Source: a virus | Lineage: Duplodnaviria > Heunggongvirae > Uroviricota > Caudoviricetes | Length of the DNA stretch: 49,193 nucleotides | Direction: 5' to 3' (one strand) | Virus record (IMG/VR): IMGVR_UViG_3300045988_148039 | Shown: in pieces, positions 1 through 49,193 of the stretch | Layout: each line of letters begins with the position of its first letter | Position numbering within the stretch: the first letter of the stretch is position 1 | Notes under the pieces: model-generated | Database searches by the model: none | What the model saw: only the letters and a program-made list of their open reading frames with translations | What the model was told of the DNA's origin: nothing | Made by a program: the position numbers and the translations under genes

Positions 1-77
1 TAATTTTGAAAACCTTGATGCTTCAAAAGTTATTCCATTGAGCGAAAGCATCCCTTCCTTTATGGAAGCAGATAGCC
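1..77. repeat. Terminal direct duplication: 1..77 is identical to 49117..49193 (circular-closure overlap)
   Basis: Exact 77-nt identity of the two window ends read directly; implies a circular molecule of 49116 bp. Confidence 0.9.
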
Positions 78-618
78 GTATTGGTTTTTCAACCTCGTCA
101 GCAAAGCCAAGCTCAACAGCTTCTTCTGCATTTAGCCATGTTTCCTGATCCATTAGTTCAATTAATTTATCCTCAGAAAGCCCTGTTTTCTCCTTATATG
201 CAGATAAAATACTATTTCGTATCTTATCCATCATCTCAGCAATATCACGCAATTCATCCGCATCCCCCATTGCCCATGTCCACGGATTATGGATCATCAT
301 CATAGCATTAGATGGGATAATAATTTTATCACCCGCCATTGCAATAATAGTTGCAGCCGATGCAGCAATGCCGTCGATATAAACAGTAATATTCGCCTTA
401 TGGCGTTTTAATGATGAAAGAATAGCTTGAGCAGTAAAAACAGAACCGCCATAACTATTAATTTTTACGTTGATAGTATTTGATGAAATATCCTTTAACT
501 TATTCACTATATCAGAAGAAGAAACCTCATCAAATTCGCCAATATATCCGTAGATTAAAAGTTCAGCCGGTGAGTCATCTTCACCCGTGCTATTTTTTAT
601 TTCCCACCAATTAGGCAT
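1..618 (-). CDS. Head maturation protease/scaffold (ClpP/S49-like, lambda gpC-like), N-terminal part; gene continues across the junction into 48670..49116
   Basis: Minus-strand ATG at 618 overlapping the portal stop; my translation MPNWWEIKNSTGEDD...INSYGGSVF...AMAGDKIIIPSNAMMMIHNPW stays open to base 1 and is in frame with ORF 48670..49167 through the duplicated 77 bp. Confidence 0.7.
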   Translation of the reverse strand, partial: MPNWWEIKNSTGEDDSPAELLIYGYIGEFDEVSSSDIVNKLKDISSNTINVKINSYGGSVFTAQAILSSLKRHKANITVYIDGIAASAATIIAMAGDKIIIPSNAMMMIHNPWTWAMGDADELRDIAEMMDKIRNSILSAYKEKTGLSEDKLIELMDQETWLNAEEAVELGFADEVEKPIRLSASIKEGMLSLNGITFEASRFSKL

Positions 619-2185
619 CATCTGTCTCCATATTTTGTTCATTTACCTCAGAAACAGGAGGCGTAATCAGCCCTAATTCACGGCGAGCACTCTCCTCCCT
701 GCCACAAATTTGTGCGGTTTCTTCCCAGTTAAGACCTGACATTTCAGCCGCTTCTTTTTCACGGGTAGAGAATGTTTCTTCAACACGCAGTTTTGCAGCT
801 TTGACTTCTTTAAGGGGATCTAATTGACCTTGTGATGGGCCATACCATTGAGCGCCACTCCATGCAGCGCGATATTCTGGCCCATAAAAAAAACCAGGGG
901 CAATAACACGACCTTTAGCAACAGCTTCAGCCAACCATTCCTCATAGATCGGTTGGCAAAATGACTGAACCATCCAGTCACGTCGCATACGGAACATTTT
1001 CCAGGCTTCAAGTAATGCGGCCCTGCTTGCGCTATAACTTGCTGTAAAATGCTTTACCAAGAGTTCGTAAGGGAGTTCTAAAGCAGCCCCAATTTGACGG
1101 CATATGGCGACAACAAAACCATCAAATGCCGTATTTGGTCGCCCGGGATTTGCTGTATCTATCGACTCACCTTCCCCCAAACTTACTATGGAGCCATTCC
1201 CCATTTCTTGGGTGTTATCATCATGGTTATCGATCTGCTCGTACTGAGGGATACCTGATTCACCTACTGGTCCATCAGGAGCGTCTGTTTTAATAAAAAC
1301 TGTAAACATCCCTGACACAACCGCAGCAACCAATTCAGCATCGGTGTATCGTCCTAACTGCTTCAATGCTTCAATTACAGGAGCAAGGACAGGAACGCCA
1401 CGGCGTTGCCCAGGCCTTTCAAAATCCTGCATAACATGCAGAATATTTCTTCTTCCTGTTTTACTCCCATATGCGGGAATACGTTCCCACTTGCGGGTTA
1501 CAAAACCAGAAGTCCCGGCTGGGTGATGTTTTGCAACCCAGTACGCCACAGGCTCGCTAAATTCACCAACCTCTACGCCACCGTAAAGATTTGGTATAAA
1601 ACGATCCTCTGGATTGCAAACACGATCACCTTCAATTAAATAGACGCACAAATCATATATAACACCCTTACGCTTAATAACTGGTAGCGCAGCAAATATA
1701 TCGCCAGATGTTAACGCAGATATTTGGACCAATGATTGCAATTGTCCAAAAGTACACATTCTTGATGCATCACAATTTGGAGAATCAGCCCATAATCTAA
1801 ACTCACGCTCAACATGCTTTTCCCATGCTCGCGCTTCTTCCTGCGTCATCCCCAAGAAATCGGCATCAATGTTCGCATTTAGTTTTAAACCGGAACCAAC
1901 AACGTTTGTCCTGATAGTTTTTATTGCGCCAACCGATAGCGGGTTTCCCATGAAGAGATCACGAGAACGCTCACGCAATTTATCTATATTTTTAACAATA
2001 TCATCATCAGGAGAACCAGCTTTACTAAACCAACCCCTTAATGATTTTTTATGAGTGCTTGCACCATGACGTGAATATCCAAGGTTATTAATACTTTCAA
2101 GTGCTTCTAACCGTTTTCTTGCCAAAGCTCGATTTAATGCCCTCTGAGGTGAAAACGGTGCAATAACTCGATCAAGAATATTCAT
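611..2185 (-). CDS. Portal protein (lambda gpB family)
   Basis: 524-aa ORF between gpW-like and protease genes; sequence resemblance to lambda B recalled from memory. Confidence 0.8.
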   Translation of the reverse strand: MNILDRVIAPFSPQRALNRALARKRLEALESINNLGYSRHGASTHKKSLRGWFSKAGSPDDDIVKNIDKLRERSRDLFMGNPLSVGAIKTIRTNVVGSGLKLNANIDADFLGMTQEEARAWEKHVEREFRLWADSPNCDASRMCTFGQLQSLVQISALTSGDIFAALPVIKRKGVIYDLCVYLIEGDRVCNPEDRFIPNLYGGVEVGEFSEPVAYWVAKHHPAGTSGFVTRKWERIPAYGSKTGRRNILHVMQDFERPGQRRGVPVLAPVIEALKQLGRYTDAELVAAVVSGMFTVFIKTDAPDGPVGESGIPQYEQIDNHDDNTQEMGNGSIVSLGEGESIDTANPGRPNTAFDGFVVAICRQIGAALELPYELLVKHFTASYSASRAALLEAWKMFRMRRDWMVQSFCQPIYEEWLAEAVAKGRVIAPGFFYGPEYRAAWSGAQWYGPSQGQLDPLKEVKAAKLRVEETFSTREKEAAEMSGLNWEETAQICGREESARRELGLITPPVSEVNEQNMETDDA

Positions 2186-2421
2186 AAATCTCTTATCACC
2201 ACTCGTTTAATTCGTGGGCCTCGGCGTATACCTGCTGATAATCTTTCTACTTCATTACGCCAGTAATCCATCTCTTTTCTGACTTCTGATAAATCCGCAC
2301 GAGTTAACTGCCGCGTGCCAAATTTATATGACTGACCGCCAATAGCAATAGCGCGATATGCTTCCCGCCAGACAGATAACATCTCTCTGGCTTCAGTCAG
2401 AGAAAATGCTTCATTGCTCAT
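2182..2421 (-). CDS. Head-tail joining protein, gpW-like
   Basis: 79-aa ORF between large terminase and portal, the position lambda W occupies; ends in RRGP motif like lambda W. Confidence 0.55.
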   Translation of the reverse strand: MSNEAFSLTEAREMLSVWREAYRAIAIGGQSYKFGTRQLTRADLSEVRKEMDYWRNEVERLSAGIRRGPRIKRVVIRDL

Positions 2422-2432
2422 TTATATTTCCT

Positions 2433-4289
2433 CTATATGGTTACGCCTTTACTTATAACTCTACGGCGTCTTCTACGTATACCTGACGAGTTCTGCACAT
2501 ACACATTACCTCGCATTTCCTGTTCAGCAAGCCAGTCAAAATTAGGGTTCAGAATTTCCATCGCGGCAGTTGCATAGTTACGGCAATCAAGAGGCTCGTT
2601 ACGCTCGTAGACTTTCACCCACTTTTCTTTTGTCTGCCCATTTTTATATTCAAATATTTTTTTCTCTGATAATAGCCCTTTAAAATAATCAGTATCATAT
2701 CCTCTGTCAGAATCTAATGGAAAATGCATATAACCAGGACCAGGATCATGTAGCTTAATTCGTGCCATGATGGTCCCTTTACCATCATCAACCCCCAAAT
2801 TAAACAACATAGCGCCTACACGGTTATTATTGCTTGGCTTTCCTATAAACGGTAAACCTACCCCACCACGACCTCTGATAGAATATATTCGCCTTGATTC
2901 TCGCGGCTTAGTAAAGCGATATACCTCTGTCGTAAAATGCCCACCAGAGTCAATACAAACGGAAGAAATCTGTAATTTTCGACCGTCACGAAATGACCAG
3001 CTACGGAGTAAGTATTCATCAAGTTGTTTCCAGACAACATCTTGTGCGGGATCGCCCGGAAATATTTTATATTCAATCCCCCATGATTCCTTACCTTTTC
3101 CCCAACCGACCAATTCACAAACTAAATACGTGTCCTGTACGTCAACACCAGCACTTAACAATAAAACATCATCTGGTAAAAACTCTTCAAACCTTATTCT
3201 GCGTTGCAACAAGTATTCAGGATCGATATCGTCTTTAGCATCCTCTTTCCATGGCTCACCCAGCTTAAGGTTAATAAACTCCATTAATCCATTTTTATCG
3301 CGGTTTCTGGTTGCTTCCGTAAATTCTTCAACCAGCTCTGACAATGCAACCCACGGGGAGTAAAGACTGTTAATATGAAAACCAACAATACCTTTAACTC
3401 CAGTATGTTCAGCTATCCATACCCCCTTCGCCAACCAATCAACGTCTGGTTTACCAGATCCGCGCATAATCCCGCCGCACTCACAGCACTCATATCTGGC
3501 CGTTTCCGGTAACGCCTCACCTGAATCGCTCTTATCCCATCTGACTTGCGACCATTTCATCACCTGCATGGTGCCACAACATGGGCAAGGAACATGGTAG
3601 TAACGCTGATCGGAGAGCTTAAACCACTTGTGGATTTTGCTCGTTTCCTCCAAAACAGGAGTAGAAACAAAAACTTTCTTACGATTATGAAAGTTGGTAG
3701 TACGCTGAATACCTAGTTTTAGTGGGTCGCCCTCCTGCGTCACACCGTAACGATCAATCTCATCAGCTAACAGTATTCGAATTGGCCTGGATGCAAGACC
3801 TGCTGGGGAATTAGCACCAACAAGTGCTATATATCCACCAGCGTAATGCTTCATACGTATAGTCGTGCTGGACTTTTTGGCTGCACCGCGCCCCTCTTTC
3901 CCTTCATGCAGCTTGTGTTTCAAACCAGGGGAATATTTGAACGTCGGATCAATACGCTCTTTTGAAAAAGCCTCAGCCGCCTCTACCGTTGGATAAATCA
4001 TCAACTGAGGAGATGGCTCCTGATCTGCAAAGTAACCCATAACATTTAGCTGTAATTCGGATTTACCAATTTGCGAGCTACATTGCATCACTACTGTTTC
4101 TGTATCAGCGTCACCAATAACATCCATTGGTTCACGCAAATATGGCACTCGGCTTGTACGCCACGGCCCTGGCTCTGGAGACGTTCCCGGCGCTACATGA
4201 CGATACTTATCAGCCCATTCGGAAACAGTTAGCCGTGATTTAGGGCGAAGCGCACGGAAAAAAGCGGTGCTCCATACTGTTTCGCCCAT
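2433..4289 (-). CDS. Terminase large subunit (lambda gpA-like)
   Basis: 618-aa ORF; N-terminal ...VSEWADKY... and overall layout resemble lambda A; followed by W-like and portal genes. Confidence 0.85.
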   Translation of the reverse strand: MGETVWSTAFFRALRPKSRLTVSEWADKYRHVAPGTSPEPGPWRTSRVPYLREPMDVIGDADTETVVMQCSSQIGKSELQLNVMGYFADQEPSPQLMIYPTVEAAEAFSKERIDPTFKYSPGLKHKLHEGKEGRGAAKKSSTTIRMKHYAGGYIALVGANSPAGLASRPIRILLADEIDRYGVTQEGDPLKLGIQRTTNFHNRKKVFVSTPVLEETSKIHKWFKLSDQRYYHVPCPCCGTMQVMKWSQVRWDKSDSGEALPETARYECCECGGIMRGSGKPDVDWLAKGVWIAEHTGVKGIVGFHINSLYSPWVALSELVEEFTEATRNRDKNGLMEFINLKLGEPWKEDAKDDIDPEYLLQRRIRFEEFLPDDVLLLSAGVDVQDTYLVCELVGWGKGKESWGIEYKIFPGDPAQDVVWKQLDEYLLRSWSFRDGRKLQISSVCIDSGGHFTTEVYRFTKPRESRRIYSIRGRGGVGLPFIGKPSNNNRVGAMLFNLGVDDGKGTIMARIKLHDPGPGYMHFPLDSDRGYDTDYFKGLLSEKKIFEYKNGQTKEKWVKVYERNEPLDCRNYATAAMEILNPNFDWLAEQEMRGNVYVQNSSGIRRRRRRVISKGVTI

Positions 4290-4294: not shown

Positions 4295-4855
4295 TTATTC
4301 TTCCTGCTTAATAAATCGGGATTCCTGGAGCGCCTGAAGCGCAAAATTAATCTCGTCTTCAATAATGCGTTCGATCTCCCTGGCTGTTTTGCCTTCACAA
4401 CGGGGAGCTGCTCTTGGAGCAATACTAAATAAGCGGCTACGCAATTCATTAGCTGCCAGAAATGCATCATCCCTGACCGCATCTTTAGCGATGAGAGAGC
4501 CTTCCTTTTCTTCAAATTCAAGGCGTTTCAGCTTTGCCTGATAAATTTTTTCTGCGGTCTTAGCCTTGTTGAATTGCACCGCAACACCGGAAGTACCACC
4601 AGCTAATCCGGCATCATCAGCGGGTAACTCTGGTTGTTCCGAAGATATCCCATGCCCTCTTTTTCCGTTTTCAGCAGATACCTCACGACCAACCTGTCGG
4701 CTCGCTTCATAAGCCGCACTAGCTTTATCAAAATCCAGCTTGCCGCTTTTCAGCACTGGAATACGACCGGAACGACAGAGCTTCGTAACCATTGCCGGAG
4801 AAATACCTTTCCGGCGGGCAAACTCTGACTTACTAACGATGGCCATTACTTGCAA
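4295..4855 (-). CDS. Terminase small subunit (Nu1-like, N-terminal HTH)
   Basis: 186-aa ORF immediately upstream of the large terminase; N-terminal HTH-like segment SKSEFARRKGISPAMVTKLCRSGRIP. Confidence 0.6.
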   Translation of the reverse strand: MQVMAIVSKSEFARRKGISPAMVTKLCRSGRIPVLKSGKLDFDKASAAYEASRQVGREVSAENGKRGHGISSEQPELPADDAGLAGGTSGVAVQFNKAKTAEKIYQAKLKRLEFEEKEGSLIAKDAVRDDAFLAANELRSRLFSIAPRAAPRCEGKTAREIERIIEDEINFALQALQESRFIKQEE

Positions 4856-5436
4856 CCATTAGCAAGATACTGAACAAATCCCTCATGCGTTTCATGCGCG
4901 TCGTGGTACTGACGATAAACATCCAGCAACAATGCAATTTCCATATCCGTCGCGGGAATACGTTCTTTATCAATAGCCAGGTACTTAATTTGAACAACAG
5001 GGGAAGAATTATCGTCTTCTTCCCGCGGCTGTTCATCGCTTAACATTTCGTCAAGCTCTGCATCATTAAACCCAAGCAGATCAATATCAAAATCATCATC
5101 CATTAACTCTTTGACTTCTTCGGCCAGAAGCTGCATATCCCAACCAGCATTTAAGGCCAGCTTGTTATCTGCAATCCTGTAAGCCTTCTTCTGTTTTTCA
5201 GAAAGGTTACTCAACCGAATCGCCGGAACTTTATCCATTTCCAGAATTTCGGCTGCTGCAAGCCGACCATGCCCCGCAATCAGTTCATTCTTTTCATCGA
5301 TCAGCACAGGATTAGTGAAACCGAACTCACGGATACTGTTCACCAACTGTTCAACTTGCTCATCTGAATGAGTCCGTGAATTTTTGGCATATCTGAGCAG
5401 CTTACCGACTGGTAAATATTCGATTTTTAGAGCCAT
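4846..5436 (-). CDS. ParB-like nuclease domain protein (paralog 1)
   Basis: 196 aa; ParB N-terminal-domain-like region (...LIAGHGRLAAA...KKAYRIADNKLALNAGW...); overlaps the small terminase start. Confidence 0.65.
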   Translation of the reverse strand: MALKIEYLPVGKLLRYAKNSRTHSDEQVEQLVNSIREFGFTNPVLIDEKNELIAGHGRLAAAEILEMDKVPAIRLSNLSEKQKKAYRIADNKLALNAGWDMQLLAEEVKELMDDDFDIDLLGFNDAELDEMLSDEQPREEDDNSSPVVQIKYLAIDKERIPATDMEIALLLDVYRQYHDAHETHEGFVQYLANGCK

Positions 5437-5993
5437 TTTTTAACCGCCATAACACAACAGGTTAAAGAAAACTGTTTAACTTATTGATACTAAAAGAGAA
5501 AAATGACGATCTTTTTACTCATAAAAAATCACACAAACCAGCATAATTATCTGATTTTATTAAGTTTTTATAAGTAAAAAGGATCTTGCGATGGTGTTTT
5601 GGTTAAAAGATTGGATGTATTTACATGATTTATAACGATTTTTATCAAAACAACATCACATTGGTTAAAGATCTGCACGTATCTTGATGATCTAAAAGAA
5701 AATTTTCTACTTTCTTTTTACCAGCACAAATACAGCAAAAAATCACATTTTCCCGATATTTTTCAACGAGATGAGTAAATTTCTTTTACCGCAACTTTTA
5801 ACCTAACTTTTTTCACGTTTAGCTAGCCGAACATCGGGGTTCGAATGACCCGCATCCAACGCTTTTGGCCAGAAGGACCCAATTCTGCCGGACGATGAAA
5901 CGATGCTCGTGCTCCCCCACAGACAGCCAGCGAGCGACGCTACAGAACACAGTGAATACACTCTGCATAACAACACCATCAACCACACGATGA

Positions 5994-6713
5994 TTAACGA
6001 GAGAAGGTCTTAGAAAGAATGTCATCAATCGCCTTTGTGACTTCATCAGCAAACGCACCCTCACCAGCACGCAGCGCCACGCCATGCCAATCAAGACGCT
6101 GCGAATAGTTAGGTTGCTGGATAAACGTAAGGATCAACGTAGGACGCCGCCCAACGCGCTGCCAGACGCCTGGTTGAAGCGGGTTACTTGTACCAGGTCG
6201 AACAACAAAAAACTCCGTAGGCTTGCCCTGACGGCGATTTTGATGCGCATCTCGCTGAACTCTTAGGCCAGATAAGACCTGCTGTAATTGCCCCCGCGAA
6301 ATATTCCCGTATTTGTCCAGCTTTGCGCCGGGACCAGGAGCAAGCTGCCAGCCGTTAGGCAAATATCCACCAGCCCTTAGCGCCCCTTCTGAGCGTTTGT
6401 ACTGTCGTTGGCCACCTTCGATTTGCGGAGTCAACGTTACAGGGGCTGGCGTTCCTCCCCATTCACGAGCATACACAATGGCTGTAGGATCACTCTTCTT
6501 TGCGGCCAAAACGTAAGTAGAGTTCTGAATCCACGGCGTGGGCCTGTCAAATACCCGATTAATTTCATTCTTAATCGCAGCCTGAGAAGCCTTTGCCGTT
6601 CTGGTTGCCGCAAGCGCCATTGCGAACGGCAATTCGCGTTCTTCAAGGCGCTGGAGTTGTCGTTGAATATCCTGAGAAGAAAAATCCATCTTTATCTCAA
6701 TTCTGTCAGCCAC
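5994..6713 (-). CDS. Hypothetical protein co-oriented with the ParB-methyltransferase
   Basis: 239-aa ORF, 17 bp downstream of the methyltransferase stop; no family recognised. Confidence 0.45.
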   Translation of the reverse strand: MADRIEIKMDFSSQDIQRQLQRLEERELPFAMALAATRTAKASQAAIKNEINRVFDRPTPWIQNSTYVLAAKKSDPTAIVYAREWGGTPAPVTLTPQIEGGQRQYKRSEGALRAGGYLPNGWQLAPGPGAKLDKYGNISRGQLQQVLSGLRVQRDAHQNRRQGKPTEFFVVRPGTSNPLQPGVWQRVGRRPTLILTFIQQPNYSQRLDWHGVALRAGEGAFADEVTKAIDDILSKTFSR

Positions 6714-6729
6714 CAGCGCCTCCTACACA

Positions 6730-12065: not shown

Positions 12066-12141
12066 TGGTGGCCCCTACCGGATTTGAACCGATGACCGTG
12101 CGATTATGAGTCGCCTGCTCTAACCACTAAGCTAAGGGGCC
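12066..12141 (-). tRNA. tRNA, anticodon CAT (Met, or lysidine-modified minor Ile2 given resemblance to E. coli ileX as I recall it)
   Basis: Reverse complement folds as a cloverleaf: 7-bp acceptor stem GGCCCCT/AGGGGCC, T-arm with TTCAAAT loop, anticodon loop CTCATAA, encoded 3' CCA. Confidence 0.8.
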
Positions 12142-39259: not shown

Positions 39260-39261
39260 AA

Positions 39262-40263: not shown

Positions 40264-40471
40264 TATTGCGTCTCCACGGAGGCAAATTGTTTACTGATAT
40301 TGGCATAACCGGAGCATCAGGAACTTTAAGAATAATTCCCGCAGAAAAAAGCACCGTAAAGCGGTGCTCAGTATTAGCATCAATAAGAAGATAAGACAGG
40401 TACTCATTACCATACAACTTTAACGCGATGCTATCCCATGAGTCCCCTTGAACCGTTCTATAATCATCCAA
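40253..40471 (-). CDS. Tail protein X-like (LysM-like)
   Basis: 72 aa; QGDSWDSIALKLYG...ILKVPD parallels P2 X as recalled. Confidence 0.55.
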   Translation of the reverse strand: MDDYRTVQGDSWDSIALKLYGNEYLSYLLIDANTEHRFTVLFSAGIILKVPDAPVMPISVNNLPPWRRNSVT

Positions 40472-43256
40472 AACTTAATCTCCGTTGTTGGAACATATGA
40501 GCACTCAATTTCTTCTCAAAATCAGAATATCCCGCATCTAATGCTCTTTTAGCTGCCGCCTCAGTTTCCTTTGGTGAGCCAGCCGGAAGATTGATTACAG
40601 GCGAATAGGTTATCCCACCAGTCACTGCGTTAACGTTCTGGCGAGGTCCAGAACTCCCGGCAGCAGAGATCCCGTGAGGTGATAAATTTGATTGCCCGAA
40701 CTGGGTTGCGATTGCATTCTGTAAGCTGTTATTTCTGCTAACACCAGATGCCAGAGTAGTCATTATTGCCCCACCTGACTTTGTTAGCTGTGAGAATGGA
40801 CCTTTTTTCGCATCAGAGAACGGCAAATACTCACGTACAGAAGAAAAAACGCCTTTTACTTCATTGATTAAAGCATTTGCTTTTGATTTTATCCCTGTGA
40901 TTAACGTCTCAATTATTTTTGCACCTGACTCTCTCCAGTTTATTCCAGACAAATAAGCTGTTACAGATTGAAATGCTCTTATAAAGAGTCCAACTGGTGA
41001 AAAACGCATAAAAACAGATACCAGCGTATCTATGATTTTCTTTCCTGTTTCGCTCCAGTTAATGCCAGAAAGGTAATTTGTTGTAAGTTTAAACGCTTTA
41101 ATTAATAACGGAAGCGGAGACATCCATTTAAAAGCACTAATTAATGTATTGTAAATTCTTACTCCTGCCGAACTCCAGTTTATATTGGAAAGATAATTCC
41201 ATGCTTTACCAAACATGGATATAATCCATCCATTGAGATCAAAGTTTAAGATAAAGTTTTTTATAGCCTCAAAAGACTTAACAGTGTACTCCTTAATAGC
41301 AGGCCAAACTTTTGATGCACATTCTTTTATTTTATCCCAATTCTGATACAACAATATCCCCAACGCCACAATGGCTGATATGGCCATCTGAATCCAACCG
41401 AAAGGGGTTAGCTTTGTCGCTACAGATAAAGCCAACATAGCTACCCTACACGCTATAACCACACTTTTCATGGTTAGAAACGCACCTGCCGTCATCACAA
41501 TCTGAGACACAAAATTGGGGTTGTTAGCTACAAATTCACTGATTTTTGTAATTAGCGGAACCAGAACACTAAGCGCGGCATTTAAAGCAGGTTGCAAGGC
41601 CTGACCAAAACTTAATGATGCATTGCTAGCCTGAATACGTAATTGTTTCAATCGCTCCGCATTATCTTTCGTTATGTTGGCAAAATCGCGGTCAATAACA
41701 GCACTTCCAGCACCAAGAGATGTTGCTTTGATTCTCTGGTATTCCTTCCAGTTTTGAATCATCGGACGAACAAAGTTCTGAACCTGCATATCGCCAAATA
41801 GTTCACCAAGTAACTTCTGATCTCCGTTCTTAGTCATTTTCATGACAGAATGCATTGCAGCTTCGAATGGATTCTTCCCTTTTTTCTGCGCTGTTGTGAC
41901 AATTTTATATAAATCTACACCGAAATTTTTCTTTGCTTTTTTCAGGGTTTCAGGGGAAAGTATTTTCGCCAAAAAGTTGTTCATATTATTAGCAGCTTCA
42001 TCCGAAGTTGCGGAACCCTTGCGAGCTATCTGCAAAGCTGCCCCCATCGTCGCGGCGGCTTCTTTACCTCCCATTTTTAATGCCTGGAACTGAGCACCAA
42101 GCACAGGAAGATTTTTGGCCATATCTTTAAATTCAAAGTTTCCCTCTTTCCCTGCCTGAACCAGAATCCCCATTGCAGACTTCATTTGAGATGGATCAAT
42201 CTTCAATGAGTCACTTAATGTAAATGATGCTTTCGATACATCGAGGATATCAGAGCCAGTAGCTGTAGCTGTTCGCCCAATAGTCAGCAGATTCGCCTGA
42301 GCCTCTTTATAATCCTGCCCCGCAGCGACCAGAAACCCCTGAGCGGCCTGAATATCAGATGCAAACTGGTTGGTAGCCGCCCCGGTAACAAGCATCGCCT
42401 GCCCCATCGCCTGAACTTCCTCCGGCTTCATATCTGCCGTAAGACCAATCATTTTGTTTTCACGATTAAAATTTGCTGCATTATTAGCAGCAGCAAATGC
42501 ACCAGCCGCTACAGCACCAGTTTGTAATCCTGACCTTACAAGTTGACTCTTTGCCTCACCAAGATGCTCTCGCTTCAATTCACGTTGCCTTTCCAACGCG
42601 CGGTTTAACTCCTCCTGAGCACGTTTTACTGCAAGAACATTTTTCCGTGCTTCAGCCAACGCATTTTTATAGCTGTTAATTTTATCAATACGTTGTTTTT
42701 CTAATGCCCGGTTAAGTTCCTCCTGCTGTTTTTTCACTTGCTGAACATTTGCTCTGGCTAAAGCCAAAGCCGTTCTGTAGCGGTTAACCTGCTCAACGCT
42801 ACGGACCTGAGCCTCACGATTACGATCAATGCTGGCTTTAAGCTCTTTCTCTCTTGAGGCCAAAGCTCTGGCAGATGTATCAGCTCCCTGATAGGCAGAC
42901 TTTAAAGCGGCCAGTTCTTCACGCTGAGAACGTAGTGATGCTCGTAAATTCGATGAATGTGTTTTTGCCTTCTCAAAGTCACGAAGCATCGCTCTGGTTG
43001 GATTGGCCGTGTTTTTTATTTGCTTCTGTAACTCTTCAACGCGAGCGGCAGCTTTATGATATTCGAGGGCAGTCTGTCCAACCTTTACTTTTACAGATTG
43101 TAGCTTTTGAATTTCCCCATGTTCTTTCGTTAATCCAGCAAGCTCGGCATTTAATTTAGCAACAGCCTGATTAGCTGCAGTAAAACTTTTGGGGAGAGAG
43201 GCGGCAACTTTGCCGCCAATTTCAAAAGCCAGCTTAAAGTTCTTATTGCTGGCCAT
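40464..43256 (-). CDS. Tail tape measure protein
   Basis: 930 aa, coiled-coil-rich with internal tandem repeats (...EELNRALE(K/R)QR...), between chaperone and baseplate genes. Confidence 0.85.
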   Translation of the reverse strand: MASNKNFKLAFEIGGKVAASLPKSFTAANQAVAKLNAELAGLTKEHGEIQKLQSVKVKVGQTALEYHKAAARVEELQKQIKNTANPTRAMLRDFEKAKTHSSNLRASLRSQREELAALKSAYQGADTSARALASREKELKASIDRNREAQVRSVEQVNRYRTALALARANVQQVKKQQEELNRALEKQRIDKINSYKNALAEARKNVLAVKRAQEELNRALERQRELKREHLGEAKSQLVRSGLQTGAVAAGAFAAANNAANFNRENKMIGLTADMKPEEVQAMGQAMLVTGAATNQFASDIQAAQGFLVAAGQDYKEAQANLLTIGRTATATGSDILDVSKASFTLSDSLKIDPSQMKSAMGILVQAGKEGNFEFKDMAKNLPVLGAQFQALKMGGKEAAATMGAALQIARKGSATSDEAANNMNNFLAKILSPETLKKAKKNFGVDLYKIVTTAQKKGKNPFEAAMHSVMKMTKNGDQKLLGELFGDMQVQNFVRPMIQNWKEYQRIKATSLGAGSAVIDRDFANITKDNAERLKQLRIQASNASLSFGQALQPALNAALSVLVPLITKISEFVANNPNFVSQIVMTAGAFLTMKSVVIACRVAMLALSVATKLTPFGWIQMAISAIVALGILLYQNWDKIKECASKVWPAIKEYTVKSFEAIKNFILNFDLNGWIISMFGKAWNYLSNINWSSAGVRIYNTLISAFKWMSPLPLLIKAFKLTTNYLSGINWSETGKKIIDTLVSVFMRFSPVGLFIRAFQSVTAYLSGINWRESGAKIIETLITGIKSKANALINEVKGVFSSVREYLPFSDAKKGPFSQLTKSGGAIMTTLASGVSRNNSLQNAIATQFGQSNLSPHGISAAGSSGPRQNVNAVTGGITYSPVINLPAGSPKETEAAAKRALDAGYSDFEKKLSAHMFQQRRLSFG

Positions 43257-43261
43257 TAGTA

Positions 43262-43444
43262 TTAATCCTCATTAAACACATCAATCCATGCGACGATTCG
43301 CCTCAACCGAAGCGAAAGCCAGTAGGATATAGGTGTTGATTGAGATGATTGAGATAGAGAACTCGCGGCCCTCATTATTTGCTTATCAATAGGTTTTTGC
43401 TCATCAAAACCTACGAGAGCAAAAAATTCTGTACCTTTTGACAA
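43262..43444 (-). other. Minus-1 frame extension of the tail assembly chaperone (frameshift product)
   Basis: No ATG start; opens at the slippery site and runs to the stop at 43262. Confidence 0.45.
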
Positions 43445-43692
43445 ACTTTAACAAAGTCTTTCGCTGGCAATCCATTCAGATACTCTATTGGACGACCAAT
43501 ACAGCGAGCAGCCAAGGCTGCATGGACTTTATTATCAAGTGATGTTTGAACTGAAACATACCCTTGAGATTGCAGTAAGTCCGATACCTCTAAAATATCA
43601 CTGCCTTTTAGGTTGTCTAAATCAAGGTTGAGTTCAGTCACCGGCTCAAAGTCTTCAAAACGATATTCTTTACTTAATTTAACGGTTTCCAT
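43411..43692 (-). CDS. Tail assembly chaperone (gpE-like)
   Basis: 93-aa ORF between tube and tape measure genes; ends just after T TTT TTG. Confidence 0.55.
   Translation of the reverse strand: METVKLSKEYRFEDFEPVTELNLDLDNLKGSDILEVSDLLQSQGYVSVQTSLDNKVHAALAARCIGRPIEYLNGLPAKDFVKVCQKVQNFLLS
43420..43426 (-). other. Candidate -1 slippery heptamer T TTT TTG
   Basis: Read directly; in-frame position near the 3' end of the chaperone ORF. Confidence 0.45.
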
Positions 43693-43701
43693 TTTGTCAC
43701 C

Positions 43702-44223
43702 TTATAAACCTAAATCATCACGAACGCTTTTTAATATATCTTCACCATCAAAGATACAAATAAAGTTCAACTTATCAATTTCCAGGACTTCTTTTCCATC
43801 AATAAATAATTTGATATAGAGAACTTCAAATTCATTCTCTGAATCAGTAGCCTTTGCCACCTGTAGCGAACCTAAATCCAGTTTTTTAGGGTTTAGCTTC
43901 ATTGAAGCCCGAATAGGAACCGTTTTATATTTTCCTGTTCCTGCATCATAAACCTGCTGGCTACCGCGAAAATCTACCTGATGAGATGAGGATAGAAATA
44001 ATTTTGTACCAGCAGAGGTCAGAGTTCGCCATTTAAGAGAGACAGTCATTGGTTTGAAATGCCCCAGCGTTCCGCTCTCAAGCTCTCCAGCGATACCTGC
44101 ACCACTAACAGTTTCTGTCATCATCTCAATTGATGGCAGCTTTGCGTCAGCAACACCGATAATACGGTTTCCCTCACCGTATACTGTAAAGTTAATAAGT
44201 CTCTCAGGAATTTGATTGCTCAA
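43702..44223 (-). CDS. Tail tube protein
   Basis: 173-aa ORF immediately downstream of the sheath gene. Confidence 0.7.
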   Translation of the reverse strand: MSNQIPERLINFTVYGEGNRIIGVADAKLPSIEMMTETVSGAGIAGELESGTLGHFKPMTVSLKWRTLTSAGTKLFLSSSHQVDFRGSQQVYDAGTGKYKTVPIRASMKLNPKKLDLGSLQVAKATDSENEFEVLYIKLFIDGKEVLEIDKLNFICIFDGEDILKSVRDDLGL

Positions 44224-44239
44224 AGCAACCTCCTATTAT

Positions 44240-45703
44240 TTATTCAGAAAACAAGTTCAGCAGATAATCAGGATTATATTCCATGACGAACTCTATATCT
44301 CTGGCAGGTGAGAACGGTGTCATTTTTACATGGAATTTAACAATCCCGTCCATTAATGACGTAATCGTGTTTTCTGACTGATCAAAGGTAACAACACCAC
44401 CTGCAATATCCTGATTACCTGTGAGGCCGTTAAGCCAAATATTCGCACTTGTAACAATCGATTCAATTAATCGACGGTTTGCAGGATTGTCTATTTTTGA
44501 CCAATGCGAAAGAATTAACGTATTACCCACCCAGTTAAACATACGTCGGCAAACACGAAATGCGTCTTTGGGGTCTGTAGATGTTGGATAAATAGCATTA
44601 CGGTTTCCCCATGATTTCCAACCATCAAAATTAAGGCTTGTTACAATCCCCTGTCCATTTAAGTAGTTTGCCTGGCTAATGTTAAGCCATACTTCACTGC
44701 CATCTTTACGTACAGCACCGTCCATCTGTAGTTTTATATTTGACGGAGAACGTGATGGAATATCACCATACTGACTATCCAGCAAGCATGTTGCGGCCGC
44801 TAAATGGGTTGAGTGATGGTAAATATTGTCACCAAGTTTCACCATCGGCCAGCACACTGTCTGGTTAGCGGCCATGTGATTATTGTTCTGTTTCCATTCA
44901 GGAACAGCCGAGTAATCACTGATAGTAGATTTATCGGTCGGCGCATCCGTTATAGCTTCTGCTTTGAACAATTCACTAATCAGCGCGGCTTTAGCCGCCA
45001 TTAGCTGACCAACTTCACTATCAGAACTAAATCCAGGTGCAATCACTTGTCCAGGAACTAACTTGAAGCGGGGATACACATCTGACAGTAACTCAAGCCC
45101 TGTATTGGCTTTAGTGTTGGAATCCACACCACCGATAATGTCATTTTTAGTTACGGCACCGGGATCAAGATGCGTATAACTAACCTTAAGAGTAGCGTCT
45201 TTTTCGGTAATTTTTCCTCCGCTAATAGCTGTAATGACCGTATAGCCATTATCATCCAGCGCCAGCACATAATCGGTATCAACCGTTAACCCAGGTGAAT
45301 CACCATCTGCTTTTTTCACAACAACAGATTTATATAAGACACCATCGTTAGAGAGCGTACCTTTCCCGCCAGAAAGTTTTACTAACTCATCAGTAACGTC
45401 TTTCTTATGCTTTGCTGGATCAAGCACATTGATAAATACAACTGGCGCAACACCATATATTCCAAATGCGACTTTAATTACTTCGCTTAAAGTATATTTC
45501 TCGAAGTTTGTGCTATATCCTATTTTAGATACGGCCTCTGCGTATGTATAAGCAATGATAGGTTTATTTACCGCTGAGGCTGGATCTTCTAACTGATTAA
45601 CAGGAGCCGTACCAAATGCGACAATCAACCCAGCACTAACTTGCACTGGAGGAGTTATAGATGTAGCCAGCTCAGATATATAAATACCGTGGCGATATCC
45701 CAT
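44240..45703 (-). CDS. Tail sheath protein
   Basis: 487 aa; N-terminus MGYRHGIYISE resembles the conserved start of P2 FI-type sheaths. Confidence 0.8.
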   Translation of the reverse strand: MGYRHGIYISELATSITPPVQVSAGLIVAFGTAPVNQLEDPASAVNKPIIAYTYAEAVSKIGYSTNFEKYTLSEVIKVAFGIYGVAPVVFINVLDPAKHKKDVTDELVKLSGGKGTLSNDGVLYKSVVVKKADGDSPGLTVDTDYVLALDDNGYTVITAISGGKITEKDATLKVSYTHLDPGAVTKNDIIGGVDSNTKANTGLELLSDVYPRFKLVPGQVIAPGFSSDSEVGQLMAAKAALISELFKAEAITDAPTDKSTISDYSAVPEWKQNNNHMAANQTVCWPMVKLGDNIYHHSTHLAAATCLLDSQYGDIPSRSPSNIKLQMDGAVRKDGSEVWLNISQANYLNGQGIVTSLNFDGWKSWGNRNAIYPTSTDPKDAFRVCRRMFNWVGNTLILSHWSKIDNPANRRLIESIVTSANIWLNGLTGNQDIAGGVVTFDQSENTITSLMDGIVKFHVKMTPFSPARDIEFVMEYNPDYLLNLFSE

Positions 45704-45993
45704 TATTTAATCTCCATGATAGAAGAAGAAACTCTAGAGTACATTACATACTCGACACTGGTTTTATCAGAAAGTCTTTTTTCTGCATCTGCAAAATCAC
45801 TGGTTGCCACAAACAAACACTTTGCACCAGGAATATGTGATATTAATTTTTCACACTCTGGAGATAAGCCATTCTTAAATAGTTTATGCTTCAAAATTGA
45901 GAGTTGAGGGATTGTTGGTCCTATATATACAAATGTTTGAGCAACATCTTCCTTCTTTTCTATATCTTCTTTACTACTTTTCTTATTAGCCAT
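45703..45993 (-). CDS. Hypothetical protein (head-tail region)
   Basis: 96-aa ORF. Confidence 0.35.
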   Translation of the reverse strand: MANKKSSKEDIEKKEDVAQTFVYIGPTIPQLSILKHKLFKNGLSPECEKLISHIPGAKCLFVATSDFADAEKRLSDKTSVEYVMYSRVSSSIMEIK

Positions 45994-46479
45994 TTAGATA
46001 AACTCCTGAGACTGAATATTCTGAGGCTTTAATACTAGCCACGTTCCAGTTGCTTCCGTTATCCAATATGGATATGGTTGATCATCAAACATTCGCCATC
46101 TGATATCACCCTGAAAGAGAAATTTCTCTTCAAGTAAAGGCTTCTCCTGAAAATGAAACATCATCCTTTCAAGAAGAGCCATTACCCATTCATATCCAGT
46201 ATGGTCCTCACAAAAACCACCTAAAAGAAACTTAACCTTAACTTCATCCGTTTCAGGCTGCATTCCTCCTTCCGTGGGCCTGATAATCACATGAGGAAAT
46301 TCTGGCGGTTTATCTGGAGATGGTTGTGATTTAGGAGGCAAGTACCCTTTAAATATTGTTGGAACAAACAATTTAATATCGCTGTCTGTTTCATCATAAG
46401 GAGGCCCCTGCACTAATAAATCATGGAAAACCTCATGTTCCAACCGATTTTTTATTGCATCTATCAAAAGATTAATCAA
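45994..46479 (-). CDS. Hypothetical protein (possible tail completion/neck)
   Basis: 161-aa ORF between capsid and sheath genes. Confidence 0.4.
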   Translation of the reverse strand: MINLLIDAIKNRLEHEVFHDLLVQGPPYDETDSDIKLFVPTIFKGYLPPKSQPSPDKPPEFPHVIIRPTEGGMQPETDEVKVKFLLGGFCEDHTGYEWVMALLERMMFHFQEKPLLEEKFLFQGDIRWRMFDDQPYPYWITEATGTWLVLKPQNIQSQEFI

Positions 46480-46820
46480 ATCGGCATTCCTCTGTTAGTA
46501 TTAACAGTGAGAGTTATTTCCAATACACCAACATTATCTGATACTTCATCAACAATATAATTTTTACCGTTGATTTTCATTGACTGGTCTTTGACAGGGA
46601 GAACAGGAAAATCTTTTCTTGAAACAAATAATATTATTTGCCCTTGATTTATTCCCTCTGCAAACTCAGCATATGAGCGTTTATTCCGCTCATGAATAAG
46701 GTCTGTATCAATAACGGCAAGGATATCCTTGCCGTCTATGTTATATGTATCGGCAAACTCTTTTTCATTGAGGAATATTGCAGAAATATCTTGCGCTATA
46801 ACCTCTTTGAAGGAGTTCAT
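46476..46820 (-). CDS. Hypothetical protein (possible head-tail connector)
   Basis: 114-aa ORF, positional inference. Confidence 0.4.
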   Translation of the reverse strand: MNSFKEVIAQDISAIFLNEKEFADTYNIDGKDILAVIDTDLIHERNKRSYAEFAEGINQGQIILFVSRKDFPVLPVKDQSMKINGKNYIVDEVSDNVGVLEITLTVNTNRGMPI

Positions 46821-47212
46821 TACTTCTTATTACCTTTTTTTTGCGTTGATTTTTTCGCATTACTGGTATCAGAAGTAGCTACAGATTCAGATGAATCATC
46901 AGCAACCGTTTCCTCATTGCCGCCATCATCCTCAAACTCAACCTCGAATACACAGCTACCCGCCTCCGTTCGCGTAATCAACCCCGCGTCCACAGCATCA
47001 TTAACAGCAGATGCGTATCCATGCTCAAAAGCTAACTTAGCAGCATCATAGCCCCCAGCCGCTGCCAAATCACCATCCTCTTCGGTGGCAATAGCATGTC
47101 CTGACGCAATCAGTTCGGCAATCCTGGAGTTATCCATTAGCCCATTAAGCAAACGGCCCGCTTTTAGCGAGCCGTGGCTTATCGTATCAATGTTTTTAAC
47201 CAGTCTGGCCAT
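46820..47212 (-). CDS. Hypothetical protein with acidic middle and Lys-rich C-terminus
   Basis: 130-aa ORF immediately downstream of the major capsid gene. Confidence 0.4.
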   Translation of the reverse strand: MARLVKNIDTISHGSLKAGRLLNGLMDNSRIAELIASGHAIATEEDGDLAAAGGYDAAKLAFEHGYASAVNDAVDAGLITRTEAGSCVFEVEFEDDGGNEETVADDSSESVATSDTSNAKKSTQKKGNKK

Positions 47213-48256
47213 TTAAACCACCTTAGCCACCAGATAGGCGTCAGCTACACCAGGATTAGGCAGTGGAGATGACTTCATAGCAACATAACGGCCTCCCGCC
47301 TTACGAGATACCCAGGCGTCTGGAACTCGTGGTGACTCAACAATCGTCAGAGACTTTTCAACCTCATCTACAAGTTCTACAGCTCCATACAGCATCGTTC
47401 CCCGCCCCGGAGAGCCAAGGAGAATCTTATCCTCCGGCACTAATGGTTCTGGCTTTCCTGTTTTATCACTGAGAATAAGCTCGTCGTAACCATAAAAATC
47501 GAGTCCCTCAACATTACCATAATGAGTTACGCCTTCTTCTAAGTCCTCTGGCTTAATATACCCAAACTCTTTTCGGCGATTATCAAGATATTTAGTTACT
47601 GCTTCATTTTTAACGAATGCATCAACAACTTTTGCCCCCATTACGGCAACACGAGGAGTAAAACCTGAAGTTAGTGATACACGACGTTTCCAGTTGCGAA
47701 CATTGACCAACGGATCTGATTTTGCTGCACTCCATAAATCATCACCTGTCAGTTCAAGATATGGTTTATCTCCTTCCTCTTCAGGCCAAAAATAAACTGT
47801 GTTATCCACTCCTTCACCAACAATATCAACCTGCCCCGTAAACAAGACTTGTGCACACATCCATTCTTCACGGCGGTTAACCATTTCATCAAGCTCAAGC
47901 AAATCTTTACCTAATTGCTCGGCGGCTCGTTCTGCTGGCGATTTTGCGTTGTAAATATTCTCACCCGGAAGCCTGTTTAAAAGCAGCTCTGCTGTTGTTA
48001 CCAAATCAGGTGCAACAAGTGGTGGCTCCAGAGTTCTCGTTACAAAGCCGCGTCGCTCAACGGTTTTTGAGCCAAAACCTTTACCAACAAACGGAGCCAT
48101 AGTACGGCCACCGCGAACAAAATCCAGATCAACTTTCTTTGAATTAAAGGTCTGAACACCAGGAAAAAAAGTACGAAGAAGAAAACGACGAGCCTTGAAA
48201 TTCTGAATAACAGGCTCAAGCATTGTACGTCGTTCAAAAATATCAATATTCGGCAT
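47213..48256 (-). CDS. Major capsid protein (lambda gpE-like)
   Basis: 347 aa; N-terminal ...RFLLRTFFPG... parallels lambda E ...LFLRLFF...; follows the decoration-like gene. Confidence 0.75.
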   Translation of the reverse strand: MPNIDIFERRTMLEPVIQNFKARRFLLRTFFPGVQTFNSKKVDLDFVRGGRTMAPFVGKGFGSKTVERRGFVTRTLEPPLVAPDLVTTAELLLNRLPGENIYNAKSPAERAAEQLGKDLLELDEMVNRREEWMCAQVLFTGQVDIVGEGVDNTVYFWPEEEGDKPYLELTGDDLWSAAKSDPLVNVRNWKRRVSLTSGFTPRVAVMGAKVVDAFVKNEAVTKYLDNRRKEFGYIKPEDLEEGVTHYGNVEGLDFYGYDELILSDKTGKPEPLVPEDKILLGSPGRGTMLYGAVELVDEVEKSLTIVESPRVPDAWVSRKAGGRYVAMKSSPLPNPGVADAYLVAKVV

Positions 48257-48276
48257 AAAAATACGACCTCTTTATA

Positions 48277-48660
48277 TTATGCAGATGGATTTTGTTGTGC
48301 GGTATTAAGGAATATTCCAACCTTCCGGCAAGCCAGATATACATCGGCAACCTTTGCTGATTCAGGAAGGATAACCGCACGTGCATTGAACATTCCGGTC
48401 AACCATGCTGTTCCTACTTGCGCTGAATCAGTCGCATCAATACTGTGTTGAGCAATACAATACGGTTCTTTTGCCACTCCCTCTCCAGAGAGATTTATCG
48501 GAGCCACAGTGACAACATTTGTTGTCTGATCAATACTGACAAAAGCAAGTAACTCACCTCGTTTTACTTTACCGCTGGCAAGTTTAATACTTGTTGAAAT
48601 TGCTGGCATACCACCAGAAATAATCAGATTATCTGGTTCAAATGAAAAAGACTCTCGCAT
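48277..48660 (-). CDS. Head decoration protein (gpD-like)
   Basis: 127-aa ORF between protease/scaffold and major capsid genes. Confidence 0.55.
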   Translation of the reverse strand: MRESFSFEPDNLIISGGMPAISTSIKLASGKVKRGELLAFVSIDQTTNVVTVAPINLSGEGVAKEPYCIAQHSIDATDSAQVGTAWLTGMFNARAVILPESAKVADVYLACRKVGIFLNTAQQNPSA

Positions 48661-48669
48661 AAACTCACC

Positions 48670-49193
48670 TTAATTTTTATCGCGGTTTTTAAATACTGAT
48701 CCAATAACATTTTTTACTGCTTCAGCTTGTTTATCGCCGTTGTTTTCTGGTTGATTAACATCAACTGAATCATTCACCTCATTTGCGTCTTCTTGACGTT
48801 GATTAAGAAAGTTTTTGTTACGCGCTCGCTCTGCATTCATAATTTCCAAAGCAAGTTCAGCAGCAGAAACACCCGTTTTGAATTTTGCATTCTTAACTAG
48901 GTCGTCATGACCTGGAATCACGCTATTCTCGATTGTCTCAATGCGCTCGCGCTCTGATTTAACGCCCTCGTCTTTACCAGCATTAAAAACCTGATTGTAT
49001 AATTCTGGATGTTTATTCTTTAATTCATCAAGAGTCACAACATCGTCCTCATTTTGTTCATTTAATTCAGTAGATAATTCATTTTTATTTTGTGGCAACT
49101 TTGCGAGCGAATCAGGTAATTTTGAAAACCTTGATGCTTCAAAAGTTATTCCATTGAGCGAAAGCATCCCTTCCTTTATGGAAGCAGATAGCC
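48670..49193 (-). CDS. Head protease/scaffold, C-terminal part of the junction-spanning gene
   Basis: Same frame as the 1..618 fragment through the 77-bp duplication; charged C-terminal half typical of a scaffold region. Confidence 0.65.
   Translation of the reverse strand, partial: LSASIKEGMLSLNGITFEASRFSKLPDSLAKLPQNKNELSTELNEQNEDDVVTLDELKNKHPELYNQVFNAGKDEGVKSERERIETIENSVIPGHDDLVKNAKFKTGVSAAELALEIMNAERARNKNFLNQRQEDANEVNDSVDVNQPENNGDKQAEAVKNVIGSVFKNRDKN
49117..49193. repeat. Terminal direct duplication (copy of 1..77)
   Basis: Exact identity with the window start. Confidence 0.9.

Follow-up and report, generated by a model that had tools for sequence, protein, structure and literature searches.

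Phage-plasmids are a well-described kind of element (PMC7969092). They spread genes by infection as well as by plasmid inheritance, and ten curated types are distinguished: P1_1, P1_2, N15, SSU5_pHCM2, pKpn, pSLy3, pMT1, pCAV, AB_1 and cp32. In P1, c4 RNA represses synthesis of the antirepressor Ant in the c4-icd-ant operon, and the operators of the repressor C1 are scattered through the genome and include that of a lytic replication gene (PMC8546580). Here we analyzed the IMG/VR record IMGVR_UViG_3300045988_148039 (Caudoviricetes), a stretch of 49,193 nt that is called the window below. Judged from its sequence, the window is most probably a complete and apparently intact temperate myovirus whose prophage is a circular low-copy plasmid, i.e., a phage-plasmid. 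Sequence and comparison establish that the ends close to a circle, which genes it holds, that an integrase is absent and that the relatives are located on plasmids only. By its phage-database matches, the window shows no relatedness to the reference of a curated type.

The window resembles P1 in several respects. It is a plasmid prophage with partition and addiction genes, and carries an immI-type c4 antisense RNA-icd-ant operon (Rfam C4; PMC8546580), a Cin/Gin-type invertible fibre segment, a Ref-family nuclease and a tRNA gene. Its putative repressor operators are dispersed and reach a replication gene. In contrast, no DNA similarity to P1 was detectable and the genome is half the size of P1. 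The head of the window is lambda-type and the tail P2-type, and its repressor is of the CI/HTH_3 type, whereas P1 has C1. Its RepA is of the IncFII superfamily and has a predicted antisense RNA, where P1 has an iteron-controlled RepA; its ParA is small with a tiny adaptor, where P1 has type Ia ParAB; and its addiction pair is HigBA-like, where P1 has Phd-Doc. The window has no Cre-lox. The name pSLy3 was considered for the family and rejected, since it denotes a member of the ~100-kb SSU5 supergroup.

The window begins and ends with the same 77 bases. As no longer stretch is shared by its two ends, the unique circle measures 49,116 bp. A length of 77 is also a frequent k-mer length of de Bruijn assemblers. 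Joining the ends creates a single unbroken minus-strand open reading frame (ORF) from 48670 to 618/642, encoding 354-362 amino acids (aa), and this ORF is a ClpP-type head maturation protease (PF00574, 1e-31). It occupies the same slot as in the relatives, flanked by the portal gene and by the small head gene preceding the major capsid gene. Furthermore, positions 49116 and 1 of the window align to the neighbouring bases 11495/11496 of the closed circular plasmid NZ_CP109878.1. Since the protease gene is made whole and the relatives are collinear, the 77-bp overlap reflects a circle and not chance, which bears out the preliminary description of a closed circle of 49116 bp with 77-bp identical ends. 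It is hardly credible that the molecule is linear with the 77 bp as physical direct terminal repeats, instead of a circle with an assembler overlap. Short direct terminal repeats do exist in some phages. However, the repeat falls within the head-protease gene, which is whole only after closure of the circle, and the closed circular relatives run uninterrupted past the junction point. Terminases of the lambda gpA type cut at cos, upstream of the terminase genes, and the terminase of the window would be expected to cut there and not in a head gene.

All 44 ORFs of at least 150 aa, antisense ones included, and most smaller ORFs were scanned against Pfam, and selected proteins were additionally searched against PHROGs, NCBIfam and PADLOC. 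A complete set of virion, packaging and lysis genes was found (Table 1), including a 772-aa tail fibre and lambda-gpK-type fibre assembly proteins. The complete head, contractile tail and lysis modules claimed earlier were recovered in every gene class by profile matches, with the spanin-like ORFs recognized by eye. The packaging, head, tail, fibre and lysis genes are all full length; no gene is interrupted and the window contains no insertion sequence (IS) element. The large terminase is 99.7% identical to that of Yersinia phage vB_YpM_39 and 28% identical to those of lambda-like phages. Outside its own family, its identity to characterized phages is <40%, with 8 further records at 60-80%.

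The window belongs to a family of plasmids. About 60 closed circular plasmids of 46-51 kb are ~98% identical to it over 85-93% of its length. They were found in E. coli, E. fergusonii, E. albertii and K. aerogenes, and the plasmid relatives are typed as non-mobilizable; ~80%-identical plasmids occur in S. enterica. Family members include the 48,488-bp plasmid of ATCC 25922 (NZ_CP009073.1), pEC488-4 (NZ_CP109878.1) and pHN68-3 (NZ_CP141847.1), the last of which is 100% identical to the window over the repA-invertase region. Among deposited phages, only the 49-kb Yersinia phages vB_YpM_39, 41 and 44 (host Y. pestis EV76) match over a long stretch; all three have the same full architecture including repA, parA, higB and hin. 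Two partial E. coli records, vB_EcoM-613R2 and 473R2, match as well. The latter two are in-silico prophage predictions from a preprint, where they are not called plasmid prophages. The phage-database matches comprise the family itself and short lambdoid accessory genes, none being to P1, N15 or SSU5. The ~48-kb plasmids and the Yersinia phages share gene order, RepA, ParA, HigB-like toxin, CI and virion genes with the window. Of the sequence searches that had been proposed for the record, that with the terminase found vB_YpM_39 and that with the repA region the plasmid family. Searching the literature by accessions and phage names, we found no paper on this family save the preprint listing 613R2 and 473R2.

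Differences from the ~48-kb relatives are mosaic and lie in the Ead/Ea22 block, in a slot at 25.6-26.3 kb and in the tail-fibre tips. The three relatives compared in full lack only the stretches 14110-16200 (Ead/Ea22-like accessory genes), 25593-26330 (a 211-aa protein) and 31967-32489 (the silent fibre tip). The window is one more mosaic variant of a family whose sequences have stood in public databases as 'unnamed plasmids' for ten years and lately as phages too. About 1.3% of complete E. coli genomes, that of the reference strain ATCC 25922 among them, contain the family, which also occurs in Salmonella and Klebsiella; despite this abundance, it is absent from the ten curated types targeted by current typing tools. 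ATCC 25922 is widely used for quality control of antibiotic-susceptibility testing.

Of 5,426 complete E. coli genomes, 73 contain the repA region. It was found there at 84 places, each on a plasmid and none on a chromosome, and in this nucleotide search the replicon was confined to the phage-plasmid family. The terminase/portal region is present in 72 of these genomes, where it has 76 plasmid places and one chromosomal place. The exact 211-aa protein is present in 914 assembly blocks, and it lies in the same slot in all six loci inspected. The lengths of contigs with this protein peak at 20-50 kb and none is >200 kb, a distribution that a free ~48-kb replicon yields in draft assemblies. No tyrosine recombinase (Phage_integrase), large-serine Recombinase or protelomerase was found by Pfam in the 44 ORFs of at least 150 aa, and the PGAP annotation of the relatives is likewise without an integrase. 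The preliminary description had reported no integrase. This holds for tyrosine and large-serine recombinases in ORFs of at least 150 aa, but a small serine recombinase, a DNA invertase described below, had been overlooked. It had also reported no attP-like tRNA fragment, and indeed the tRNA at 12066-12141 is a full gene and not a fragment. The CAT anticodon is assigned to Met by ARAGORN and in the Yersinia phage record, and the homologue in ATCC 25922 is assigned to Ile by PGAP.

It is very unlikely that the window derives from a prophage of the ordinary integrative kind whose circle was sampled after excision or during replication, or whose assembly was separated from its chromosomal flanks. 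Induced prophages can give circular contigs, and there is the one chromosomal match to the packaging genes among the E. coli genomes, which may be a related integrated or degraded element. Against this stand the lack of an integrase or excisionase in any ORF of at least 150 aa, the presence of a full replicon, a partition operon and toxin-antitoxin loci, the replicon places (84/84 on plasmids) and the contigs with the exact 211-aa protein, which never exceed 200 kb. RepA and partition genes lie on the same molecule as the virion genes, and the relatives are extrachromosomal without integration machinery. The earlier reading of lysogeny as an autonomous plasmid is thereby supported by the plasmid location of the replicon, the missing integrase and the closed circles of the relatives.

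A further possibility is that the element is a cryptic plasmid carrying a defective phage that no longer makes infectious particles. In its favour, no experimental paper on the family was found, some relatives carry an IS in tail or terminase genes (IS5 in NZ_CP109878.1; IS1203 in NZ_CP173475), and some are shortened to 31-39 kb. However, the packaging, head, tail, fibre and lysis genes of the window are of full length and free of IS, structural genes are ~98% conserved over some 70 plasmids, and three genomes of the family were deposited as Y. pestis phages. We consider a defective phage improbable, and an intact phage-plasmid remains the preferred reading.

The replicon contains a RepA initiator of the IncFII RepA superfamily. 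RepA scores 149.8 bits against Pfam IncFII_repA PF02387 (cutoff 22.9) and 231.5 bits against NCBIfam NF040977 RepA_IncFII_LM (cutoff 70), but 78.6 bits against the equivalog TIGR03474 incFII_RepA (cutoff 446.9). Thus the IncFII-type RepA claimed before stands at the superfamily level (PF02387, NF040977) and fails at the strict equivalog. The annotated start at 30886 probably lies inside the leader, and the true start is probably an internal Met at 30754 or 30742. In some relatives, gene callers place the start ~48 codons later (278 aa), which fits a leader that is non-coding or codes solely for a leader peptide. A block that separates the promoter from the conserved portion of RepA is predicted to encode an antisense RNA on its complementary strand, with a minimum free energy of -68.8 kcal/mol and z = -8.7; none of 200 shuffles folded equally well. 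This block is near-invariant in two Salmonella relatives, in which the surrounding leader is just 75-77% identical, and its stem shows two compensatory pairs. Searching Rfam around repA at a permissive threshold gave no CopA-like family, and weak generic hairpin and terminator matches only. From its structure and conservation we infer a countertranscript of the CopA/RNAI style. Downstream of repA, where IncFII-type origins lie, a DnaA-box-like TTGTCCACA is followed by an AT-rich stretch, a candidate ori. The window is similar to the IncFII plasmids R1/R100 in RepA PF02387, in the long leader with a countertranscript-like element and terminator, and in the downstream DnaA box and AT-rich ori-like region. 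It differs in that RepA fails the equivalog and fits RepA_IncFII_LM, Rfam CopA is not detected and no CopB was identified. No separate lytic replicon was recognized in the window.

The partition locus consists of a ParA ATPase and a small partner. ParA has 222 aa and its ParA/CbiA match begins at residue 10, as in a small Walker-type ParA, and the CbiA, ParA and MipZ matches confirm the ParA-type ATPase noted previously. The 82-aa partner has close homologues only; it has no Pfam or NCBIfam match. Its AlphaFold (AF2) monomer is of low confidence (predicted local distance difference test, pLDDT, 65) and shows two helices, 47-59 and 62-80, preceded by an extended stretch. In sequence, the C-terminal segment has the order short strand, helix, turn and helix that is typical of ribbon-helix-helix (RHH) adaptors such as ParG, and an RHH fold is plausible. 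The preliminary description had paired ParA with an RHH partner; a partner with an RHH-like pattern is indeed present, but the RHH fold itself could not be demonstrated. The locus is similar to type Ib partition systems (TP228 ParF/ParG; pSM19035 delta/omega), whose RHH adaptors are also transcriptional regulators, in its small ParA, very small adaptor, disordered basic tail and strand-helix-helix pattern.

Eight 32-bp arrays were found in the window, each made of four 8-bp AT-rich units (TTATATAA/ATCTATAA-like), with 36 pattern hits against 0.21 expected. Six of the eight array positions are kept in the ~80%-identical Salmonella plasmid. As in pSM19035 and N15, short-unit arrays accompany the par promoter as well as further promoters elsewhere in the genome. 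The adaptor of the window has no sequence or structure match to ParG or omega, and the units of the arrays are 8 bp long and AT-rich. The most economical idea is that the arrays are bound by the 82-aa adaptor and serve as centromeres and operators; alternatively, they could be promoter UP-like elements or sites for another regulator. We also observed a direct repeat of 122 nt, whose three copies (76-96% identity) lie at 11054-11175, 18225-18346 and 27630-27751. Each copy links an array with a minus-strand promoter-like TTTACA-17-TATGGT and with the 5' end of an unrelated gene.

Two immunity-type regions had been described, and both were recovered as a CI-like region and a P1 immI-like region (Rfam C4). 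In the first, the CI-like gene is transcribed divergently from the early operon. The palindrome ACCAC-N5-GTGGT has four exact copies in the window (20771, 20874, 21625 and 30923), against 0.10 expected. They lie in the switch region between cI and the early operon, after cI, and in the repA leader (30923). The ~80%-identical S. Weltevreden plasmid has palindromes at the same three kinds of position, the repA leader among them, and the repA-leader palindrome is kept in the Salmonella relatives. Copies with one mismatch lie at 23962, just upstream of the antirepressor operon, and at 8683 and 8704. The pair at 8683/8704 lies at the 5' end of the gene for a 207-aa ParB/Srx protein.

In the second region, a C4 antisense RNA directly precedes a 63-aa ORF at the position of icd, whose stop overlaps the start of an antirepressor-like gene (24460-24463). 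The C4 loop at 24173-24186 is complementary at 13 of 14 positions to 24268-24281, which spans the ATG of the small ORF at 24272. Thus the hallmarks of P1 immI appear in the sequence: a C4 RNA and its complementarity to the start of a small ORF that is apparently coupled to a gene at the ant position. No Ser-Lys dyad was found by eye in the S24-like part of CI. Prophage induction via the antirepressor, rather than via RecA-mediated cleavage of CI, seems likeliest. It was also observed that the ATCC 25922 plasmid has an extra ~800-bp insert (19494-20300) that separates its par locus from its C4 operon and encodes a 190-aa helix-turn-helix (HTH) protein. The window lacks this insert at the corresponding site, 23948-23959.

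The HigBA-like pair reported before was confirmed by sequence profiles, with a Gp49 toxin gene upstream of an HTH antitoxin gene. In addition, the window contains an RNA similar to ryfA. In Salmonella, the product of ryfA is TimP, a toxic membrane protein of 38 aa that is repressed by the divergently encoded small RNA (sRNA) TimR (PMC7667032). The ryfA-like RNA of the window holds a 40-aa ORF (about 23393-23515) that begins MKKYCMCIFIVVTGALF and has a signal-like hydrophobic N-terminus, and a candidate TimR-like sRNA is complementary to it at 17 of 18 nt. This locus is a candidate second addiction or stress module.

The serine recombinase of the window aligns full length with Mu Gin (PDB 3UJ3, 8e-62; residues 3-180). 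Matches to gamma-delta resolvase (2e-30) and other resolvases (about 1e-30) are weaker, and large serine integrases match in the catalytic domain only. This 184-aa recombinase drives a tail-fibre host-range switch of the Mu G/P1 C type and not integration. The core of the inverted repeats, AAACCTCGGTTTACAGGAAACGGTAAA, agrees with the gix site. The assemblies CP009073 and CP037450, both of the ATCC 25922 plasmid, are collinear save for an inverted segment of ~3.0 kb whose breakpoints overlap within the repeats. pHN68-3 carries the segment of the window at 93% identity in the opposite orientation, and the inverted junction built in silico is intact in 14 deposited plasmids. Judged from these deposited sequences, inversion of the tail-fibre segment is real: a recombinase of the invertase subfamily is encoded next to inverted sites that flank a segment seen in both orientations. 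The system resembles Mu G/Gin in the end-to-end alignment of the recombinase (8e-62), the 3-kb segment with inverted repeats, the crossover within the fibre gene and the two alternative pairs of tip and chaperone. It differs in that the window is a plasmid prophage and Mu is a transposing phage. About 60% of the relatives are without the invertase and the invertible segment.

Taken together, these features suggest how the element could be maintained. The IncFII-superfamily RepA would act on an ori just downstream of its own gene, and its synthesis would be throttled by the countertranscript RNA over the repA leader. Segregation would depend on the small ParA and the 82-aa adaptor, the latter probably bound to the 32-bp arrays upstream of parA and to six other sites. 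Plasmid loss would be penalized by the HigBA-like pair and possibly also by the TimP/TimR-like locus. Lysogeny would be held by the CI-like repressor on the ACCAC-N5-GTGGT palindromes, including the one in the repA leader, with a near-match before the antirepressor operon. As a second layer of immunity, the C4 antisense RNA would block translation of the icd-position ORF and the coupled antirepressor. Host range could be altered by the Gin-type invertase, which would flip the 3-kb segment and thereby exchange fibre tip and chaperone. The details added here are the P1 immI-like C4/icd/antirepressor operon, the ryfA/TimP-like locus, the predicted repA antisense RNA, the repressor-type palindrome common to the immunity region and the repA leader, and the eight arrays as possible centromere/operator sites.

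A joint reading of the arrays and palindromes, drawn by analogy, is tentative and rather doubtful. By this reading, the adaptor on the eight arrays, located at the par promoter and at those of unrelated phage operons, might be both a centromere protein and a global regulator (cf. omega of pSM19035 and the scattered parS of N15). CI on the repA-leader palindrome might couple immunity to replication, so that loss of immunity would switch RepA from copy-controlled to lytic replication. The family is small and combines a lambda-type head, a P2-type tail, an IncFII-superfamily replicon, antisense immunity in the style of P1 and a host-range switch in the style of Mu, which makes it a compact model for combined phage and plasmid control circuits.

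Several points weigh against the window being an intact phage-plasmid controlled in this way. For this molecule, both circularity and copy number are deduced from the 77-bp overlap and the relatives. Formation of particles by the family is documented by database deposits only, and the literature search found no paper behind the Yersinia phage records. One of the 77 terminase/portal matches is on a chromosome-classed record, where it lies without a replicon match. The S24-like domain of CI scores under the Pfam cutoff, and no LexA/SOS box was found near the regulators; the one site in the window lies in a coding region, as chance predicts. Searches with the 82-aa partner by Foldseek against PDB and by profile against PDB sequences returned noise only, and no dimer-resolution system was identified in the window.

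Table 1. Coordinates of features in the window (strand +, - or, where no strand applies, a dot)
Feature	Position	Strand	Evidence or remark
Terminal duplicate of 49117-49193	1..77	.	Assembly overlap; unique circle = 1-49116
Portal protein, lambda family	611..2185	-	PF05136, 7e-101
Terminase large subunit, lambda gpA type (ATPase + nuclease)	2433..4289	-	GpA_ATPase 7e-76, GpA_nuclease 2e-84
Terminase small subunit	4295..4855	-	phrog_57, 7e-42
Three ParB/Srx N-terminal-domain proteins (196, 459, 207 aa) and a 239-aa protein without assignment	4846..8726	-	ParB_N, Methyltransf_23
MT-A70 family methyltransferase	11170..11757	-	PF05063, 3e-23
32-bp arrays, elsewhere	11144-11175, 12280-12311, 17098-17129, 18316-18347, 27720-27751	.	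Pattern search
tRNA, anticodon CAT	12066..12141	-	Complete gene
Lysis cassette	12311..13974	-	Profile matches; spanins by eye from translations
o-spanin-like lipobox ORF	12311-12520	-	Overlaps i-spanin-like ORF; inspection of translation
i-spanin-like ORF, N-terminally anchored	12435-12713	-	Inspection of translation
GH108 endolysin with PG_binding_3	12710-13252	-	Profile matches
Holins (Phage_holin_8, Phage_holin_3_7)	13522-13974 and 13239-13571	-	Profile matches
Early operon	14107..20751	-	Cro-position 164-aa protein, DUF1064, Ead/Ea22-like accessory genes
DUF3560 protein	17162-18283	-	Within early operon
Ref-family RecA-dependent nuclease	19111-19515	-	Within early operon
Divergent switch region	20752..20925	.	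ACCAC-N5-GTGGT palindromes at 20771 and 20874
CI-like repressor	20926..21582	+	HTH_3 4.5e-11; Peptidase_S24 0.0018, below cutoff
32-bp arrays flanking parA promoter	22072-22103, 22145-22176	.	Candidate centromere/operator
ParA partition ATPase, small, no N-terminal HTH	22185..22853	+	CbiA 1.7e-12; ParA; MipZ
32-bp array between parA and partner gene	22853-22884	.	Pattern search
ParA partner, 82 aa	22897..23145	+	Lys/Pro-rich disordered N-terminus, C-terminal strand-helix-helix pattern
ryfA/timP-like RNA	23368..23664	-	RF00126, 142 bits, gathering 80
Putative TimR-like sRNA	23800..23945	+	z = -4.7, terminator hairpin at end
isrK-like RNA	24036-24109	+	RF01394, 65.7 bits, gathering 50
C4 antisense RNA	24134-24222	+	RF01695, 70.8 bits, gathering 45, full-length model
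icd-position 63-aa ORF	24272-24463	+	Directly after C4 RNA
ORF6N+Rha antirepressor-like gene, 383 aa	24460-25611	+	Start overlaps stop of 63-aa ORF
211-aa accessory protein in variable slot	25646..26281	-	phrog_23465
Small HTH protein / 126-aa protein, no function assigned	26917-27222 / 27253-27633	-	Two ORFs
HigBA-like type II toxin-antitoxin pair	27797..28449	-	Toxin first
HTH antitoxin (HTH_3/HTH_37)	27797-28096	-	1-nt overlap with toxin gene
HigB-like toxin (Gp49 PF05973, 5.7e-23)	28096-28449	-	Profile match
Candidate ori: DnaA-box-like site, then AT-rich stretch	29660..29905	.	Downstream of repA; by inspection
RepA initiator, IncFII RepA superfamily	29906..30886	-	PF02387 1.3e-43
Predicted antisense (countertranscript) RNA over repA leader	30762..30895	+	Long hairpin + terminator hairpin with U-run
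ACCAC-N5-GTGGT palindrome in repA leader	30923-30937	-	Exact copy
repA promoter-like site	31071-31044	-	Sigma-70-like, 10/12 match; upstream of repA
Gin/Cin/Hin-type serine DNA invertase, 184 aa	31068..31622	-	Resolvase 3e-44, HTH_7 2e-14
Invertible tail-fibre segment, ~3 kb	31693..34778	.	Inverted repeats 31693-31747 and 34724-34778
Silent alternative fibre C-terminus, promoterless	31737-32720	+	Gp34_trimer, 3e-12; inside invertible segment
Second fibre chaperone, silent	32722-33249	+	Inside invertible segment
Expressed fibre C-terminus + chaperone	33278-34723	-	Inside invertible segment
Constant N-terminal part of tail fibre gene	34779..36132	-	Phage_fiber_2 9.5e-59; whole ORF 33814-36132
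Tail and baseplate module, contractile	36163..45703	-	gpI, gpJ (5e-55), gpW/gp25-like, gpU, gpV spike, gpD hub
Tape measure	40464-43256	-	Tail module; assembly chaperone also in module
Tail tube FII	43702-44223	-	3.5e-44
Tail sheath	44240-45703	-	phrog_23, 8e-96
Head-tail connector proteins + capsid region	45703..48660	-	Profiles + synteny with NZ_CP109878.1 and ATCC 25922 plasmid
Major capsid protein E	47213-48256	-	PF03864, 1.8e-50
Small head protein	48277-48660	-	Head module
Head maturation protease (ClpP-related), 3' part	48670..49116	-	PF00574 1e-31; continues over junction to 618/642

Besides the modules above, the window carries genes that probably act in DNA modification or anti-restriction. 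The three proteins with a ParB/Srx N-terminal domain are not the partition ParB; they resemble N-terminal domains of methyltransferases, and the 459-aa one is fused to a methyltransferase domain. They match just the N-terminus of the MTase_II model of PADLOC. Together with the MT-A70 methyltransferase, they are probably involved in DNA modification or anti-restriction rather than in partition. PADLOC identified no defence system among the accessory proteins of no assigned function in the window. A 206-aa ORF on the minus strand (31628-32248) and the remaining antisense ORFs of at least 150 aa were discarded as spurious, as they have no family matches and overlap better-supported genes. Distant from the tail module, a gene at 8961-9674 (-) encodes a 237-aa protein with a partial Caudo_TAP domain. 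This gene is kept in the Yersinia phage, and other genes stand in its place in NZ_CP109878.1 and the ATCC 25922 plasmid.

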